Assembly (NCBI GenBank): GCA_038889235.1
Contig: JAWAHN010000001.1
Coordinates: 884,499-916,498, forward strand
Direction of reading: 5' to 3'
DNA length: 32,000 nucleotides
Source of the DNA: Candidatus Jordarchaeales archaeon
Lineage (GTDB): Archaea; Asgardarchaeota; Jordiarchaeia; Jordiarchaeales; Freyrarchaeaceae
The first letter of the stretch is position 1. Each line of letters starts with the position of its first letter. Below are positions 2,640 to 27,414 of the stretch, in pieces. The position numbers and the translations under genes were made by a program. The notes below the pieces were generated by a model that was not told where the DNA came from, did no database searches, and was given only the letters and a program-made list of their open reading frames with translations.

Positions 2640-3048
2640 GGCGGCGTGCCAGGAGTAACCCACCTTCTGTTGGGAGGACCGCCGTCGCCGGCGGCCTCCT
2701 GGCGGCATTCGGCTAAGCGCCCTACCCGCCGCCTCCCGTGGGCATCATCGGCAGCCTATTTGGGCTTTCAACCTCCGAGGCCGGCCGTTTCAACGATCCC
2801 ACTTGCGTCCTCGGCGGGTTAACTCGGCGCTTGTTGCCAAGCGCCTTCTCGGGAGATTTCCCCCCCTCAGCCGCCTCATCGCCATATTGCAAGTGGACGT
2901 GTCGTTTGCAGCCTTACCAATGGTTTCTGCTCCGGAGCCGGGCCTCTCGGCCCGCGCCTCGCGGCGCTCGGATCCCACGGTGGTTGGGTGGAGTTTCCTC
3001 AGCGCCCTTTTCAGGCGCCGTGGGCCGCCCTCTGGCTCGCCGCCTCAT
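2636..3048 (-). ncRNA. rnpB: RNase P RNA (archaeal type A-like)
   Basis: The minus strand carries the CR-I motif GAGGAAACUCCAC and CR-V AACAGAAGGUGGGUUACU, plus GCAGAAAC and UGAAACGGC. The P1 terminal stem is AUGAGGCGGCG...CGCCGCCUCAU. GC-rich island of ~413 nt. Confidence 0.93.
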
Positions 3049-6141: not shown

Positions 6142-6456
6142 TTGCCTAAAAGAAAAGAGAAGGAAGAGATGCTTGAGGTAAAGGATGTAAGAATACCCAT
6201 GGAAGGGGAAGTTTTAGGCGTAGTTGAGAGGATGGTTGGCAATGATAGGCTTATTGTTAACTGTGCGGATGGCAAAACCAGGCTTGCAAGGATTAGGGGG
6301 AAATTCAAGAAGAAGGTTTGGATAAAAAATGGGGATGTCGTGCTAGTAGCTCCCTGGGATTTTCAGGACGACCGAGCAGATGTTATATGGAGATACAGTG
6401 AGGGAGAGGTTAAATGGTTGAAAAGTAAAGGATATCTTAATGGTTTAGAAGTTTAA
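6142..6456 (+). CDS. eif1a: Translation initiation factor aIF-1A
   Basis: EGEVLGVVERMVG..RLIVNCADGKTRLARIRGKFKKKVWIKNGDVVLVAPWDFQDDRADVIWRY. Confidence 0.96.
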   Translation: MPKRKEKEEMLEVKDVRIPMEGEVLGVVERMVGNDRLIVNCADGKTRLARIRGKFKKKVWIKNGDVVLVAPWDFQDDRADVIWRYSEGEVKWLKSKGYLNGLEV

Positions 6457-9341
6457 CTTTTGCCGGCGTGACGAATATACTTTAAGTATTTTTCAACGAA
6501 TTCTGGTTTTAAGTAAAAGAGTATTGTTAGAATTATTGTGGTCAGTAGCAGCATAGTGGATAATTGAGTGCATGATTGGTTAAGCTCGTAATGTCTTAGT
6601 ATGGCTTGCAAGATAGGAGGCGATAAAGCATAAATGTTCACTCCTTCGGGGGGAACAACTTCTAGGAGTAGTGAAAAGGTTACGTTTTCTCCATAATCAT
6701 CTGTGGCTTTTATCGTTATGTTTAGTACACCGGTGTAAGTAGGTGTGATGTAAGCCACGTAAACGTTCTCTTCTTCACTTTTTTGCGGCTCAAGAAGCGT
6801 TGTCCCATTTACTATAATACTGATGTCACCAGAGAAGTTTTTCGGGCTTGAAGGTGGGGAATATCCAACCCACACTTTTATGGTATGTGTTTTTCCTAGG
6901 GTCAGTTTTTCATTCGGTTGAATAATGGCTGCAGTTAGCTTATAAACGCGGAAAATGTAAGTAGTCTCGCCGGTGGGACTGAAACGTCTCTCATGGTGAA
7001 TTGTACCATCATAACTAACTATTCTCAAAATGTATTTTCCAGCATCGGTGGGCGTGAAGTTAAAAGTGAAAGTAAAGTTACCTGAGGGAGCCGCTTGAAA
7101 GTCTCTCTTTGAGCCGTTAGGCAACACTATTGTAGCGATAACTGTTTCAGGGTTATCTAAGAAGTTTCCTACTACTATAGCTAGTTCCCTTCCAACGTGA
7201 CTGAAGTCGTGCGTTACACTTAGCTCGGGAAGAAGCGATATTTCTAGATCAAGTTTGCTTCCGTCTGCAAGCAATGGAATGTTTTCGCCTTTTAGTACGA
7301 GTAGGCTGCGAGTTGTTTCGTTTAATGAGAAGTCAAGCCAATCTTCACTTGGAGAAGAATTCAAGACTACATTCTTGACGGCGTATTTTGCAGGGTAGTC
7401 GAGCTTTATGAAGCTTTGTTCAGGAAATATGGTGCTTCCATTGTGAGTGTAGTTATACAAAATTTTTGATGTATCAAACAAAGCGACGTCCTTTAGGGAT
7501 AACTTTGCAAAAGCAAATACGATGAGGCTTTTTTCAACCCAGCCCGATGTATCTTTGAGTTCAACCAGGAATGATACCTCCCCTTCAGACTTATCGTAAC
7601 TTATCTCGTCAGTAGTGAAAGATTTCGTGTAGCCGTTTCCAATCATTGAAGTTAGCTTTGTACCGTTCAAATAAAGCGTGTAACCGCTGAGATTTCCAGT
7701 GTAGTTCACGTAATGAACAATGTATGACACACTGTAGTTTAGCTGTGTGATGGCAGTTACAGAGATAGTTACACTACCATTCACTGGAGCTAACCACAAG
7801 CTGCTGTTCCAGGATAGGTCGTTGCGGACTGGTGTGCCATTAACGAGAAGGAGGAGGTCGTTGAGAGCACGCCAGCTTGTGTAGTCTGGGGCAATTTTCA
7901 TGCAATGCCAGTACCGGTTTCCATATGGGTCTCTTGCATCTAATACCCAACTAGCCCCTCCATCGGTAGTCCAAATCTCGTACCCAAATTCGGGAACTCC
8001 CTCATTAGTTCCCTCCATGTGGCTTCCCCAATCATAGTAGCCGCCGTTAGTTGAGGGAAGCCAGTCTTTCACGTGGAGCACGAGGAAGTATGCACCAGCG
8101 GATAAACTTGAGGTGAAGTTTAACGTCACCCAGGAATAGTTGGAAGATATGAGTGACGGAGGAACATCTATGCTTTCTATGATGGTGCCGGGAACCCAGC
8201 GGTTACCGTCGAGAGTAGCATTACGTAGCTCCGCGGTTAAGTTAACGTTCATTCCAAAGTTAGCTAACGGAACGGAAATGCTAATCCGGTTTACGGCTTT
8301 TCGGAGCAGGAACATTTGCGCCTCTCCCATACTCCCATTTATGCGAGCATAACCTCCGCTATTCATGCGATCTTCTAGAGTAGTCCACACTAACCCCGGT
8401 TTTATGTTTGAGAGGGAAAAAGATGCAGAGTAAACTCTATTACCGGGAACATCGACGGAAAAACTTCCGTTCAGCATGTCAAGTATTCCGCTAGCGCTTC
8501 CCAGGGTGACGCCTTCACATATATCCAAGCATAGATAGTCTAAATCCCAGCCGGGAGGCAAGTTAAACTTGAATCCATCGTAGACCATTAGACTGATATT
8601 CATCCAGCAATCATAATTAACAAGCTCCCATTTGGAAACATCGTTAAGATCGTCAAAGGACATAAAGTTATTCACGAACGCAAACCCTGCGTCGCCATAG
8701 CTGTCTGCCGTAACATTCCAGCCGAAGTGCGTTTCACTAGTTGTGTTTGCATAAACGACAATGAAGAAGATGCCGTCGCATGTATCGGAAACATTTAAAG
8801 TAACAGGAGACTCGTTCAGGAAGGTTACCCATCCAGGCGAGGATGGAACCATAGTGCTCGAGTAAGACTTCTCAATCAAAGTTACGTTCGGCACAGGTAA
8901 GCCGTCTCTGAGCGTAGCATTCCTTAATTGAACGACAAGGCCAACGGCTTCGCCTTCTCCATCTCTCCACAAATAAAGAGAGACTCCAGTAAAGTTTACT
9001 TTTAAACCACCCACACTTGATATGTTAAAGGACATGGCTACAGATTGGTTTGACGATGCAGAACAATTCACCGACAAATATTCGTTTCCATAAAGATTTT
9101 CTTCAAGCATCAATGTTACTGGCTTGCTCGTGCTAAACGACGAAAAGTTTATCCAATAAGCGGAAAGCGTTACCTCAGCACTAACAGGAGATTTTCCTAT
9201 CAATGTGGGAGCCACTAGGCGAGTATTATCGCTCTGTAAATTAGGGAACAAAGGAAACACCGAAACGGATAACAGAACTTGAATCATGAAAAGTGAAACA
9301 AGTAAGGTCAACGTTGCAGCAACAACCTTCTTGGCCTTCAA
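6453..9341 (-). CDS. Large secreted/surface glycoprotein with duplicated beta-sandwich modules and a C-terminal TM anchor
   Basis: N-terminal signal/TM (KKVVAATLTLLVSLF), many N-x-S/T sequons, two LRNATL...VP...WVT..F modules, C-terminal TM followed by a basic tail. Confidence 0.8.
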   Translation of the reverse strand: MKAKKVVAATLTLLVSLFMIQVLLSVSVFPLFPNLQSDNTRLVAPTLIGKSPVSAEVTLSAYWINFSSFSTSKPVTLMLEENLYGNEYLSVNCSASSNQSVAMSFNISSVGGLKVNFTGVSLYLWRDGEGEAVGLVVQLRNATLRDGLPVPNVTLIEKSYSSTMVPSSPGWVTFLNESPVTLNVSDTCDGIFFIVVYANTTSETHFGWNVTADSYGDAGFAFVNNFMSFDDLNDVSKWELVNYDCWMNISLMVYDGFKFNLPPGWDLDYLCLDICEGVTLGSASGILDMLNGSFSVDVPGNRVYSASFSLSNIKPGLVWTTLEDRMNSGGYARINGSMGEAQMFLLRKAVNRISISVPLANFGMNVNLTAELRNATLDGNRWVPGTIIESIDVPPSLISSNYSWVTLNFTSSLSAGAYFLVLHVKDWLPSTNGGYYDWGSHMEGTNEGVPEFGYEIWTTDGGASWVLDARDPYGNRYWHCMKIAPDYTSWRALNDLLLLVNGTPVRNDLSWNSSLWLAPVNGSVTISVTAITQLNYSVSYIVHYVNYTGNLSGYTLYLNGTKLTSMIGNGYTKSFTTDEISYDKSEGEVSFLVELKDTSGWVEKSLIVFAFAKLSLKDVALFDTSKILYNYTHNGSTIFPEQSFIKLDYPAKYAVKNVVLNSSPSEDWLDFSLNETTRSLLVLKGENIPLLADGSKLDLEISLLPELSVTHDFSHVGRELAIVVGNFLDNPETVIATIVLPNGSKRDFQAAPSGNFTFTFNFTPTDAGKYILRIVSYDGTIHHERRFSPTGETTYIFRVYKLTAAIIQPNEKLTLGKTHTIKVWVGYSPPSSPKNFSGDISIIVNGTTLLEPQKSEEENVYVAYITPTYTGVLNITIKATDDYGENVTFSLLLEVVPPEGVNIYALSPPILQAILRHYELNQSCTQLSTMLLLTTIILTILFYLKPEFVEKYLKYIRHAGKS

Positions 9342-9688: not shown

Positions 9689-9699
<11 letters not shown>
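9648..9699 (+). other. 5' strand of the 23S pre-rRNA processing stem with BHB
   Basis: Pairs with 12763-12814. Central helix CGCC(9667-70)/GGCG(12788-91), with 3-nt bulges AAC (9671-73) and AAU (12792-94). Confidence 0.88.
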
Positions 9700-12762
<3,063 letters not shown>

Positions 12763-12773
<11 letters not shown>

Positions 12774-23289: not shown

Positions 23290-23306
23290 CGCGAAAGCTT
23301 TAATAC
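23290..23306 (+). promoter_or_regulatory. BRE/TATA promoter of the tRNA-Met gene
   Basis: CGCGAAAG-CTTTAATA lies ~30 nt upstream of G23331. Confidence 0.75.
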
Positions 23307-23330: not shown

Positions 23331-23540
23331 GCTGGGGTCTCCTAGACTTGTGGGATAGTATAACCGATCTGTACCACACTAGAATGGATTGCGCCGCCCA
23401 GAACTGGAGCCGGACTCATAATCTATCGTAATGAAAGGGGTCAGACTAGGATGAGAAATCCGGTTACGAGGGTTCAAGAGAGGGATAGCCGCTGTTAACT
23501 TGAGGGCGGCTGTCCACTGGAACTCCCTCCCCCAGCACCA
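23331..23540 (+). tRNA. tRNA-Met(CAU), elongator type, with four BHB introns and encoded CCA
   Basis: Exons 23331-47, 23385-89, 23404-20, 23458-78 and 23524-40 join to GCUGGGG UC UCCU AGACUGGAUC UGGA G CCGGA CUCAUAA UCCGG UUAC GAGGG UUCAAGU CCCUC CCCCAGC A CCA (77 nt). Each junction sits in a 3-4-3 BHB. Confidence 0.88.
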
Positions 23541-23579
23541 TTCTACTTTTTGAGAAACTTTCACAGAAAGCGAAAATTT
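23541..23579. terminator. Bidirectional T-rich terminator region between convergent tRNA genes
   Basis: + strand TTCTACTTTTT after tRNA-Met. Minus strand TTTTCGCTTTCT after tRNA-Thr. Confidence 0.55.
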
Positions 23580-23669
23580 TGGAGCCGCCGGGGGGATTTG
23601 AACCCCCGACCCGCGGATTACAATTGCGGTCTTTGATGTCCGCCGCTCTGCCTGCTGAGCTACGGCGGC
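23580..23669 (-). tRNA. tRNA-Thr(UGU) with a 14-nt intron at 32/33 and encoded CCA
   Basis: GCCGCCG/CGGCGGC acceptor stem, U73, GCUC/GAGC D stem, GCGGA/UCCGC anticodon stem. Removing 23624-23637 gives loop CU-UGU-AA. BHB helix GCGG/CCGC. Confidence 0.93.
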
Positions 23670-24422: not shown

Positions 24423-25472
24423 CTAGTGTGCTATTAGCTCGTCTTGACAGTAAAGTTTCCATTCTAACTTGCATTGGCAATCGACAATTTCTAGTTGCCT
24501 GACATCCTGGGTTACTGAGAAATGTCTTAAAGCCGCATCCACCTGCCTGTCACACGCTCCGCAGTTATGTGGCCCTCTGGGGCGACCTGAAGCTGTAGGA
24601 GTACAAATTATCGTGGTTTTCGTTTTTCCATGTATGTCGAGTATTATCTTTGTCAAAGACCAAAGCCACGGGGGTCTGTATTCTCCTCTTTCCCATAGGA
24701 GTTCCAAGAATGTTCCTTTATGCACAGTGCAGGGGTTTAGCGATACGACGTCAACCCCCATTTTCGACAAATGCATGATGGATTTCTCTGTGTCGATCAC
24801 GGCTTCAACCTCTTTTAAGAACGGGGGTTTAACCAAGAGATAAACTTTGACCCTAACTCCTAGACTCTTCAACGTTTGCAGAGCAGAGTTGAAGTCTTCA
24901 AGAGTAAAACCCTTATTCATAAGCGCTCTGATATTGTCGTTCACGGTTTCTAGCCCTATAGCTACGGTCAACGTTTTTCCTTCGAGAGCTTTAACCGAGT
25001 TACTTATTGTTTCTTCCCTTACGAATTCAGGCCGAGTTTCAACTATTACTTCCTCTATTTTGTCTTCTTTAGAAATAATGCGAAATATTTCATTTCTCAC
25101 TTGTTCAGGAACTTCCCTTTCATCGAAGAAACTTCCAGACGTGAATATTTTGACACTTACGGGAGGGGTTAGAGGCACTATTTTTTCGTAAGCCGCTTTG
25201 AACTGTTTTATGAGGAAGTCGGGTGGTAGGGGGGAGCGCGCGCCGTCGTATATGTAGCCGCACATGGCGCAACCACCGGACGTAATAGCCCAATGGCACC
25301 CCAACGTTGGCAGGATAACTACAAGGGCATGACCTGGTTTTTCGAGGACGCGATCTGGCTCCACCCAAAACCTCGGAGCCACTGCGTCAATTGATTTCCT
25401 GGATGAAAGGTGCTCTTCTCTTAACCTAGAGGAGTAGTGCGAAACGATATTGCTTATGTTTTTAACGTTCAT
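24423..25472 (-). CDS. raSEA: Archaeosine biosynthesis radical SAM protein RaSEA
   Basis: ILPTLGCHW...GGCAMCGY cluster motif, FTSGSFFD, ETRPE, GLET, YLLVKPPFL, GPHNCG.CD. Adjacent to arcS. Confidence 0.9.
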   Translation of the reverse strand: MNVKNISNIVSHYSSRLREEHLSSRKSIDAVAPRFWVEPDRVLEKPGHALVVILPTLGCHWAITSGGCAMCGYIYDGARSPLPPDFLIKQFKAAYEKIVPLTPPVSVKIFTSGSFFDEREVPEQVRNEIFRIISKEDKIEEVIVETRPEFVREETISNSVKALEGKTLTVAIGLETVNDNIRALMNKGFTLEDFNSALQTLKSLGVRVKVYLLVKPPFLKEVEAVIDTEKSIMHLSKMGVDVVSLNPCTVHKGTFLELLWERGEYRPPWLWSLTKIILDIHGKTKTTIICTPTASGRPRGPHNCGACDRQVDAALRHFSVTQDVRQLEIVDCQCKLEWKLYCQDELIAH

Positions 25473-27414
25473 TAGAGTCCCTCTTTTTAGTGAATTTTAG
25501 CTTTACAGCTACGCCGCGGCTAAGCTTAAGCATTTCTTCCCCATTTAGAACGGCTTCACCGATACCAATTAACTCTTTGGACGAGCTTACAACAAAGACT
25601 ATATCGCCGGGCCTTATTTGAGGATCGGCGTCTTCCACCCCGGGAACCATCACCGATGAACCTTTAACGTATTCGCCCTTGAATATAACCCAGTGGCTGA
25701 AATGTGCAAGCCGCTTCCCCCCCTCAAGTGTTGGTACAATGAACCCTGTTGAGGGAGATATACTAGCCAGTAAAATCCCTTTTTCGTAAAGAAGTTTTTC
25801 TTGTCCCGTCTTAACCATAGCGGACTCGGAAAGCAACATTTCTCCTGCCCCAAGTCCAAATTGGTAGTCTGCTGTTTTCTTGAAAACTTCCTTTAAGTAG
25901 TCTATTTCTCCTTGGTTTTGTGAAAAGCGTGAAAGAATCTTCTTTAAAGAAGACAACGAAGAAGAACTGGTAAGGTCTCCTTCCACTTCTGTGTATATTA
26001 TGTCCCTTCCAGCTAGTTCGCCTGCCTTTTTACAGGCTTGCAGGTATCCACCGTCAAGGTGCGCTACTACTGGACAGTCGTCAGGAAATTTGTTTAAGTA
26101 ATTTGCAATGCACTCTGCGGTGATTCTTATCTCTTCTTGATCCCAGTCTCCGGTCACTGGGACATCGTAGTGTGCTGCTGGGTACACTTCTTCGAGTTCC
26201 CGCGGAACTAGTCCAAGGGGGGACGTCACTATGCCTTCACATACCCCTTTAACTCCCGACTCAGTTATAATTTTCCTGAAAAGTCTGTGGGACGGCGAGC
26301 GAGAATAAGGTTTTCTCGCAGAGCAAGGTAGGAGGAGAACGAGGGTAACATTTTTCGGGGGCGTATAGCGCGCAGCCACTCTGCTTCTGAAGCGGGAAAT
26401 AGATGGCCTATTGTAGGATTCAGGTCCTATGCAGTAAACTTTGCCTTTGCCGGAGACAGGAGTATACTTTTCCAGCATAGAGTAAGCAGTTTTGTCAGAT
26501 ATTCTGAGAATTGCTGCTAGCTCTGGTAAGTAGTGACAGGCCTCCTCTACACCTTCGCGGAGCCGCGACTGTTTAATTAGGAAAGAAGCTTTTCTAAGCA
26601 AATTTAACGCTGATAGAATATTGTGGTTAAAAAGAAGTTGACGTCTCTCCTCGCTGCTTAACAAGGAGTCTTTTAGGTGGAGACAAGCTTCACAGAGACA
26701 TGGTAGGTCGCCTATCGAACTGAGCGGATACCACTCGCCTCCGAAAAAATAGAGATTTTTTATGGTTGAATCGATAATGGCTGAGACGTCGAAAAGATCA
26801 ACCCCCAGGTATACTAGGTGAAGGTAGTATGAGGGAGGGATTTTTCCTGGAGCATATAAAAGTGCGTTGGGGCCTATAGTGTAGTTGATTTCATTAAGGA
26901 AAGAGACTAAAACTCTGGGGTTGCGGAGAATATCTTCCAGTCCTTTTAGAACATAGATGGGAAATTCTAGTTTACTCATCTCTGAGAGAAGCATGCTCCT
27001 AAGAGACTTATCTTGGAGGTAGTAAAGGGGAGCAGCTATTGGAAGACTGCTGGCAATTTTTCTTACCGTTTTCATGCTTTCAATAAGCTCGTCAAGTAGG
27101 GCGACTGTTAAATCGCGCAAGTGGGTGATCATTGGAGTTGAAACCAAGAGAATGTCAGCTTTTAAACTCAGCCCGTAGTTTAGGGACTCCTCTGCACCAA
27201 AAATTAAAGGGCTTGGAATTGGAACAATCTTGATTTTTCCTTCAACGTTAGGTAACGCTTCTCTCTCGTGGATAGCAACAACTTCTAGTTGAGGAGGTGG
27301 ATTAAAAGATCCTACGGTGAAGTTGAAAACTAAATTTGGAGTACTAAAAACTTTTGAGCCCACTTTGACGCGGGTAATTCTTCCAGGACCGTCGTGGCGA
27401 AGCACTTCAAACAA
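25462..27414 (-). CDS. arcS: Archaeosine synthase subunit alpha (ArcS/TgtA2)
   Basis: MFEVLRHDGPGRI N-terminus, LLLPCSARKPYS.S.SH, TSPLGLVPRELE..YPAAHYDVPVTGDW, C-terminal PUA domain. Confidence 0.93.
   Translation of the reverse strand: MFEVLRHDGPGRITRVKVGSKVFSTPNLVFNFTVGSFNPPPQLEVVAIHEREALPNVEGKIKIVPIPSPLIFGAEESLNYGLSLKADILLVSTPMITHLRDLTVALLDELIESMKTVRKIASSLPIAAPLYYLQDKSLRSMLLSEMSKLEFPIYVLKGLEDILRNPRVLVSFLNEINYTIGPNALLYAPGKIPPSYYLHLVYLGVDLFDVSAIIDSTIKNLYFFGGEWYPLSSIGDLPCLCEACLHLKDSLLSSEERRQLLFNHNILSALNLLRKASFLIKQSRLREGVEEACHYLPELAAILRISDKTAYSMLEKYTPVSGKGKVYCIGPESYNRPSISRFRSRVAARYTPPKNVTLVLLLPCSARKPYSRSPSHRLFRKIITESGVKGVCEGIVTSPLGLVPRELEEVYPAAHYDVPVTGDWDQEEIRITAECIANYLNKFPDDCPVVAHLDGGYLQACKKAGELAGRDIIYTEVEGDLTSSSSLSSLKKILSRFSQNQGEIDYLKEVFKKTADYQFGLGAGEMLLSESAMVKTGQEKLLYEKGILLASISPSTGFIVPTLEGGKRLAHFSHWVIFKGEYVKGSSVMVPGVEDADPQIRPGDIVFVVSSSKELIGIGEAVLNGEEMLKLSRGVAVKLKFTKKRDSNER

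Follow-up and report, generated by a model that had tools for sequence, protein, structure and literature searches.

The elongator tRNA-Met(CAU) gene located at 23331-23540 (+) of the window (the whole 32,000-nucleotide stretch analysed here) contains four introns, two of them in the D-arm, where the bulge-helix-bulge (BHB) motifs of introns 1 and 2 share bases around an exon of 5 nt. Partition-function folding suggests that, in this gene, intron 1 is probably removed before intron 2, as a matter of preference. Crowded tRNA introns are already known to produce such an order as a side effect, and it does not amount to a fixed checkpoint.

Identification and organisation of the gene

The tRNA-Met gene is entirely missed when ARAGORN and Rfam are applied to the raw window, where only the convergent tRNA at 23580-23669 is seen, and ARAGORN run on the whole genome with relaxed settings returned only noise. 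Once four inserts (23348-23384, 23390-23403, 23421-23457 and 23479-23523) are removed, ARAGORN calls a 77-nt tRNA-Met(CAU), and the same four introns were returned by an independent whole-genome beam-search parser. Excision at the bulge cut sites restores the cloverleaf, with a D-loop that matches those of intron-less orthologues. One long D-loop intron, or other registers, gave a lower score or no cloverleaf. We also rejected the unusual C21 as a sign of a wrong register, since orthologues have U, G or A at this position and the intron-less genes of family f2 have U. The parts of the gene and its putative signals are as follows.

23292..23305 (+): putative archaeal promoter (BRE and TATA-like), about 26 nt upstream of tRNA-Met, from the sequence
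23331..23347 (+): exon 1, tRNA positions 1-17 (motif enumeration and parser)
23348..23384 (+): intron 1, 37 nt, position 17/17a, hBHBh' (enumeration, parser, shuffle P 7e-5)
23385..23389 (+): micro-exon UGGAU, 5 nt, U17a G18 G19 A20 U20a (motif enumeration)
23390..23403 (+): intron 2, 14 nt, position 20a/21 (enumeration, parser, shuffle P 1.8e-3)
23404..23420 (+): exon 3, positions 21-37, anticodon CAU at 23417-23419 (motif enumeration)
23421..23457 (+): intron 3, 37 nt, canonical position 37/38, helix CUCA/UGAG (enumeration, parser)
23458..23478 (+): exon 4, positions 38-59 (motif enumeration)
23479..23523 (+): intron 4, 45 nt, T-loop position 59/60, helix UUCA/UGGA (enumeration, parser)
23524..23540 (+): exon 5, positions 60-76, encoded CCA at 23538-23540 (sequence, enumeration)
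23547..23551 (+): T run, probable terminator that faces the convergent tRNA-Thr gene (sequence)

A CGAAA...TTAATA-like element is found at the equivalent place upstream of the tRNA-Met orthologues. The gene combines the CAU anticodon with G1-C72, and the genome contains two further CAU genes, one with A1-U72 (C5:19304) and one with an Ile-type acceptor stem (C1:665902). By sequence type, we take the gene at C5:19304 to be the initiator Met and the one at 23331-23540 to be the elongator Met, their charging being a prediction. The elongator gene is single-copy among the parsed tRNA genes of the genome, and a genome search for an intron-less or split second copy found none; the pseudogene reading was therefore rejected, and all four introns need to be spliced.

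The protein encoded upstream is IlvE, whose nearest relatives belong to Jordarchaeales MAGs (89-91% identity), which assigns the window to the class Jordarchaeia of the Asgard archaea. The convergent tRNA-Thr(UGU) gene (23580-23669, -) carries at 32/33 an intron of 14 nt (23624-23637, with the helix GCGG/CCGC) and cannot be typed by ARAGORN; the Met-Thr pair is likewise adjacent in genomes G004 and G005. The archaeosine genes arcS and raSEA (24423-27414, -) adjoin the two tRNA genes, and G15, the position that they target, belongs to the central helix of intron 1. The window also includes a 23S rRNA gene (9689-12773, +) with no 16S gene, the RNase P RNA gene (2644-3040, -) and an ORF of 962 aa (6453-9341, -) with no NCBIfam match. 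Intron 3 (23421-23457) encloses a purine-rich GGGGUCAGA core which is kept in the 37/38 intron across both families (f1 and f2) and is also present in the 21/22 intron of tRNA-Leu(UAA) of this genome. Targeting by a guide RNA, or intron copying of which it would be a trace, could account for this core; no guide RNA for it was found, and no convincing candidate emerged when a C/D guide was sought for C34 of the elongator tRNA-Met.

Overlap between the motifs of introns 1 and 2

Introns 1 and 2 are arranged in tandem with 5 exon bases between them, and neither lies inside the sequence of the other. The preliminary description had them parted by UGGAU (23385-23389) alone, which is borne out base by base. 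The central helix of intron 1 pairs CUAG (23342-23345, in exon 1) with CUAG (23379-23382) at 4/4 positions, with bulges ACU and AAU, a 5-bp inner helix and a 2-bp outer helix composed of C23341-G23386 and U23340.G23387 (C11-G18 and U10.G19). Exon 1 also provides C17 (23347), the first base of the intron 2 helix. The 3' strand of the latter is CCAG (23398-23401), with an inner helix of 2 bp and an outer helix of 1 bp. As had been proposed, the helix CUGG/CCAG (4/4) needs C23347 and hence the removal of intron 1; in the precursor, it reads AUGG/CCAG (3/4), with an A23384.G23401 mismatch.

Three bases, U17a (U23385), G18 (G23386) and G19 (G23387), are common to both motifs. U23385, absent from the earlier list of shared bases, is both the third base of the 3' bulge of intron 1 and a paired base in the intron 2 helix. 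Because the introns are 5 nt apart and their motifs share these three bases, both strict motifs cannot coexist. G23386 and G23387 had rightly been placed in both motifs, but the competition attributed to the outer helix of intron 1 needs qualifying, this helix (one G-C and one G.U) having a near-zero probability in the folded ensemble. Shuffled introns equal the observed motif with P = 7e-5 for intron 1 and 1.8e-3 for intron 2, and all four central helices of the gene reach 4/4 jointly with P = 2e-7 in the shuffle test.

Folding of the precursor and probable order

The precursor and its intermediates were compared by partition-function folding (ViennaRNA) at 37 C and 65 C, in four set-ups. Removal of intron 1 raises the probability of the central helix of intron 2 from 0.02 to 0.90. 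When the inner helix is included, the motif passes from 0.006 to 0.34 at 37 C and from 0.0007 to 0.10 at 65 C, a 54- to 150-fold rise and absolute values that should be read with the weakness of ViennaRNA on 3-nt bulges in mind, several true motifs receiving low probabilities. Across set-ups, the gain of the intron 2 motif on removal of intron 1 is 54- to 5,400-fold in this genome (G000). In the full precursor, intron 1 is favoured 33-40:1 over intron 2, and all four set-ups favour it in this gene, by 27- to 79-fold. The earlier suggestion that splicing preferentially proceeds from intron 1 to intron 2 agrees, for this gene, with this comparison of precursor and intermediate, and the 5' position of intron 1 in the transcript would help its precedence.

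The modelled penalty in the precursor comes largely from mispairing of intron 1 with intron 2, not from the shared G18-G19; the outer helix of intron 1 almost never forms and is not its source. About one fifth of the intron 2 folds retain the central and inner helices of intron 1, and a relaxed intron 2 motif (3/4 helix, 2-bp inner and 1-bp outer helices) can form in the precursor, rarely according to folding. The probability of the intron 1 motif is 0.21 whether or not intron 2 is removed first, so that the reverse path is productive.

We propose that the gene would be transcribed as a single precursor, in which each BHB would be cut by an EndA of (alpha-beta)2 form whose loop is of the CSL type, and RtcB would rejoin the exons, both enzymes being assigned by homology and their activity presumed. 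Intron 1, transcribed first, would offer a far stronger hairpin with a complete helix, and the terminal pair of the intron 2 helix would be A.G for as long as C17 has not been supplied by ligation; the main path expected from folding would be cut 1, ligate, cut 2. This order would be a preference and not a requirement, the relaxed 3-of-4 form of intron 2 being probably cuttable and also yielding mature tRNA. The dependency would be a by-product of an intron landing in the helix strand of a neighbouring motif, in a lineage steadily gaining tRNA introns. The hazard would be that both cuts occur before ligation and release the 5-mer, a risk that the overlap of the motifs may passively lower.

Mismatch tolerance and splicing enzymes

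An obligatory order, in which any cutting of intron 2 would have to await the cutting and ligation of intron 1, as for the dependent introns of Thermoproteales, is unlikely. It has a published precedent in dependent archaeal introns, and the intron 2 motif is intrinsically weak: given its 2 inner pairs, the loss of one central pair may abolish its cleavage. The strict 4/4 helix of intron 2 exists solely after ligation in G000, G003 and G004, and the motif gain calculated for this genome has an equivalent in G003 (70- to 8,800-fold). Against this, permanent mismatches in the genome, an EndA predicted to be of the relaxed type and orthologues that break the gate formed by C17 argue that the order is not obligatory.

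Indeed, among the 88 core introns of 41 parsed tRNA genes in this genome, each helix being scored after all upstream splicing, the central helix is imperfect in 25, and the pair concerned here, beside the 3' bulge, is mismatched in 12; these permanent-mismatch controls depend on a parser that we wrote, some genes having uncertain registers. In the 18/19 intron of tRNA-Trp, A.G is permanent (AGCU/GGCG) and the inner helix has 2 bp, a geometry that intron 2 shares before intron 1 is removed. The genome encodes RtcB and two EndA paralogues (alpha at C1:1056473, beta at C3:444309). The alpha paralogue has the catalytic Tyr-His-Lys, its best PDB match is the EndA of Aeropyrum pernix (E 5e-47), and its Crenarchaea-specific loop (CSL) aligns to that enzyme without gaps, with a Lys at K44. 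Judging from these sequences, the EndA would be a CSL-type (alpha-beta)2 enzyme, for which relaxed specificity is predicted; a CSL with Lys at K44 confers on EndA activity on relaxed motifs (PMC6379350). The stronger earlier claim, that splicing must proceed from intron 1 to intron 2, thus loses most of its ground, a relaxed 3/4 motif being possible and the same pair being permanently mismatched in these 12 introns, whose motifs have to be cut as they are.

At the other extreme, there might be no meaningful order, EndA acting on either motif as it happens to breathe into shape, with similar amounts of the two single-intron intermediates. The possible coexistence of both motifs in relaxed form is in line with it, as are the tRNA-Ala(GGC) of this genome, with an equal 5-nt exon and no mismatch, and a modelled preference that varies among orthologues (below). 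This reading is nevertheless a little less probable than an obligatory order: the four set-ups agree on intron 1 in this gene, intron 1 is transcribed first, and in Cyanidioschyzon merolae the order of removal tracks motif free energy. A preferential order is the reading that we retain.

Orthologues and history of the D-loop introns

Besides this genome, four members of the family keep introns 1 and 2 and the 5-nt exon; three share its genus and one belongs to another. Across all five, the micro-exon is UGGAU or UGGAA and the intron bodies differ (12-37 nt). The C17 gate is absent in 2/5 of the orthologues. In G001, the last base of intron 1 is C and CUGG is already present in the precursor. 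In G002, whose parse was set by hand after the parser had failed on it, the intron 2 pair is a permanent C.A mismatch, even after splicing, and this mismatched version has to be cut. In G006, the single D-loop intron permanently faces A17, with an A.G in its helix in every register tried. The modelled preference is for intron 1 in G000 and G001, is tied in G003 and is for intron 2 in G002 and G004.

Both D-loop introns are present in 5/5 genes of family f1. In family f2, four orthologues have no D-loop intron and two have one intron near 20/21, which ends like intron 2. These f2 genes indicate that the pair was assembled stepwise, and comparison of the sequences makes it fairly likely that intron 1 landed later, inside the helix strand of the pre-existing intron 2 motif. 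Alternatively, D-loop introns near 20/21 may have been gained independently. A pattern scan of metagenomes retrieved only the G002 sequence and chance matches. A second elongator tRNA-Met, in tandem with the first in G006 (L086/L088, G006:C356:8358-8700), has no matching 5' acceptor strand within 130 nt upstream and is probably a decayed duplicate.

Micro-exons in other tRNA genes

Three further genes of this genome contain a 5-nt exon. Asp(GUC), with introns at 32|37, and Leu(CAG), at 18|21, have an equivalent one-pair dependency, and Ala(GGC), at 53|58, has none. Exons of 4 nt or less number 0-1 among the 44 adjacent intron pairs of this genome vs about 10 expected under independent placement, a count in which mis-parsing comes most easily with the shortest exons, and an ambiguous tRNA-Trp is the possible exception. 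This shortage suggests selection against tighter overlap. A hard floor of 5 nt was rejected as a rule, since relatives have exons of 2 and 4 nt and an exon of 3 nt is implied by a published table, for a gene marked there as possibly a pseudogene (PMC11291895). In the Pro(GGG) gene of G004, introns at 23/24 and 25/26 are separated by 2 nt and the second helix passes from 1/4 to 4/4 after the first splice; in Ala(GGC) of G005, the exon is 4 nt and the second helix passes from 2/4 to 4/4. The first of these is located as follows.

L232 (G004:C8), 1384-1567 of the reversed locus (-): tRNA-Pro(GGG) with a 2-nt exon

This tRNA-Pro(GGG) is a better test of an obligatory order than tRNA-Met, in which intron crowding has one of its ordinary consequences in a mild form.

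The tRNA-Trp gene (G000:C2:111365-111550, +) has an anticodon-loop insert with C/D-box-like elements, whose guides are complementary to positions 34 and 39. Two readings of the insert are possible, a single 79-nt intron at 37/38 or introns of 64 nt and 15 nt around a 2-nt exon; if right, the latter would be a strictly dependent pair. Five introns were parsed in tRNA-Ser(CGA) (G000:C1:1018102-1018308, +), where the variable-arm call is uncertain.

It is doubtful that, in intron-saturated Asgard tRNAs, selection keeps the BHB overlap for enforcing cut-ligate-cut and preventing micro-exon loss; were it so, the shortage of exons below 5 nt would mark the limit of a safe handover from EndA to RtcB. 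Less probable still is a selected checkpoint, a form of quality control or regulation in which the overlap would be retained to make the maturation of elongator tRNA-Met conditional on a ligase that matches the pace of the endonuclease: five genomes from two genera share the two-intron layout and exon spacing is somewhat constrained, but C17 is not conserved as a gate, close relatives lack both introns, similar layouts exist in the Asp, Leu and Ala tRNAs of this genome, shorter exons do occur in relatives, and the ligase is already required by every intron-containing tRNA. The built-in maturation checkpoint of the preliminary description finds no support, the C17-dependent step being missing in two of the five orthologues, the modelled preference being reversed in two and the reverse order being productive.

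Comparison with known systems and significance

Ordered removal of dependent archaeal pre-tRNA introns has been published (Sugahara 2007; Tocchini-Valentini 2009, as reported in PMC3978253 and PMC3728597). As these two articles present them, the dependent (nested) pre-tRNAs of Thermoproteales resemble tRNA-Met in that the full BHB of one intron appears only after removal of the other, in non-canonical D-loop positions and in a host with a CSL-type (alpha-beta)2 EndA and a ligase. Unlike the nested introns so described, those of tRNA-Met are in tandem around a 5-nt exon, belong to an Asgard host and are known here from sequence. Their dependency is also weaker than in the accounts given there, only 1/4 central pairs hinging on the first splice. 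The tRNA-Met introns would work like these dependent introns, in a weaker tandem form.

Multi-intron tRNAs of C. merolae undergo sequential BHB processing, in an order, established by RT-PCR, that shows a correlation with motif free energy (PMC3728597). An order led by free energy is the mechanism that we favour for tRNA-Met, whose motifs share bases in an archaeal host, whereas those of C. merolae fold independently in a eukaryote.

In Jordarchaeia and Atabeyarchaeia, 92-97% of tRNA genes are interrupted (PMC11291895; bioRxiv 10.64898/2026.10.13.758758), with up to five introns per gene and D-arm introns often missed by annotators (10.64898/2026.10.13.758758). Multi-intron Asgard tRNAs are thus published, and Supplementary Data 4 of PMC11291895 includes four-intron genes. 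The tRNA-Met gene belongs to the same lineage and is a worked example of overlap and order, subjects that a word search of the preprint (10.64898/2026.10.13.758758) did not find treated in the text searched.

The tRNA-Met gene shows neither a new splicing mechanism nor a regulatory checkpoint. It is a real and essential gene overlooked by ARAGORN and Rfam, and its five family orthologues constitute a natural series (gate present, gate absent, permanent mismatch, no inner helix) that bears on how much central helix the Asgard EndA needs and on whether the overlap of motifs imposes an order.
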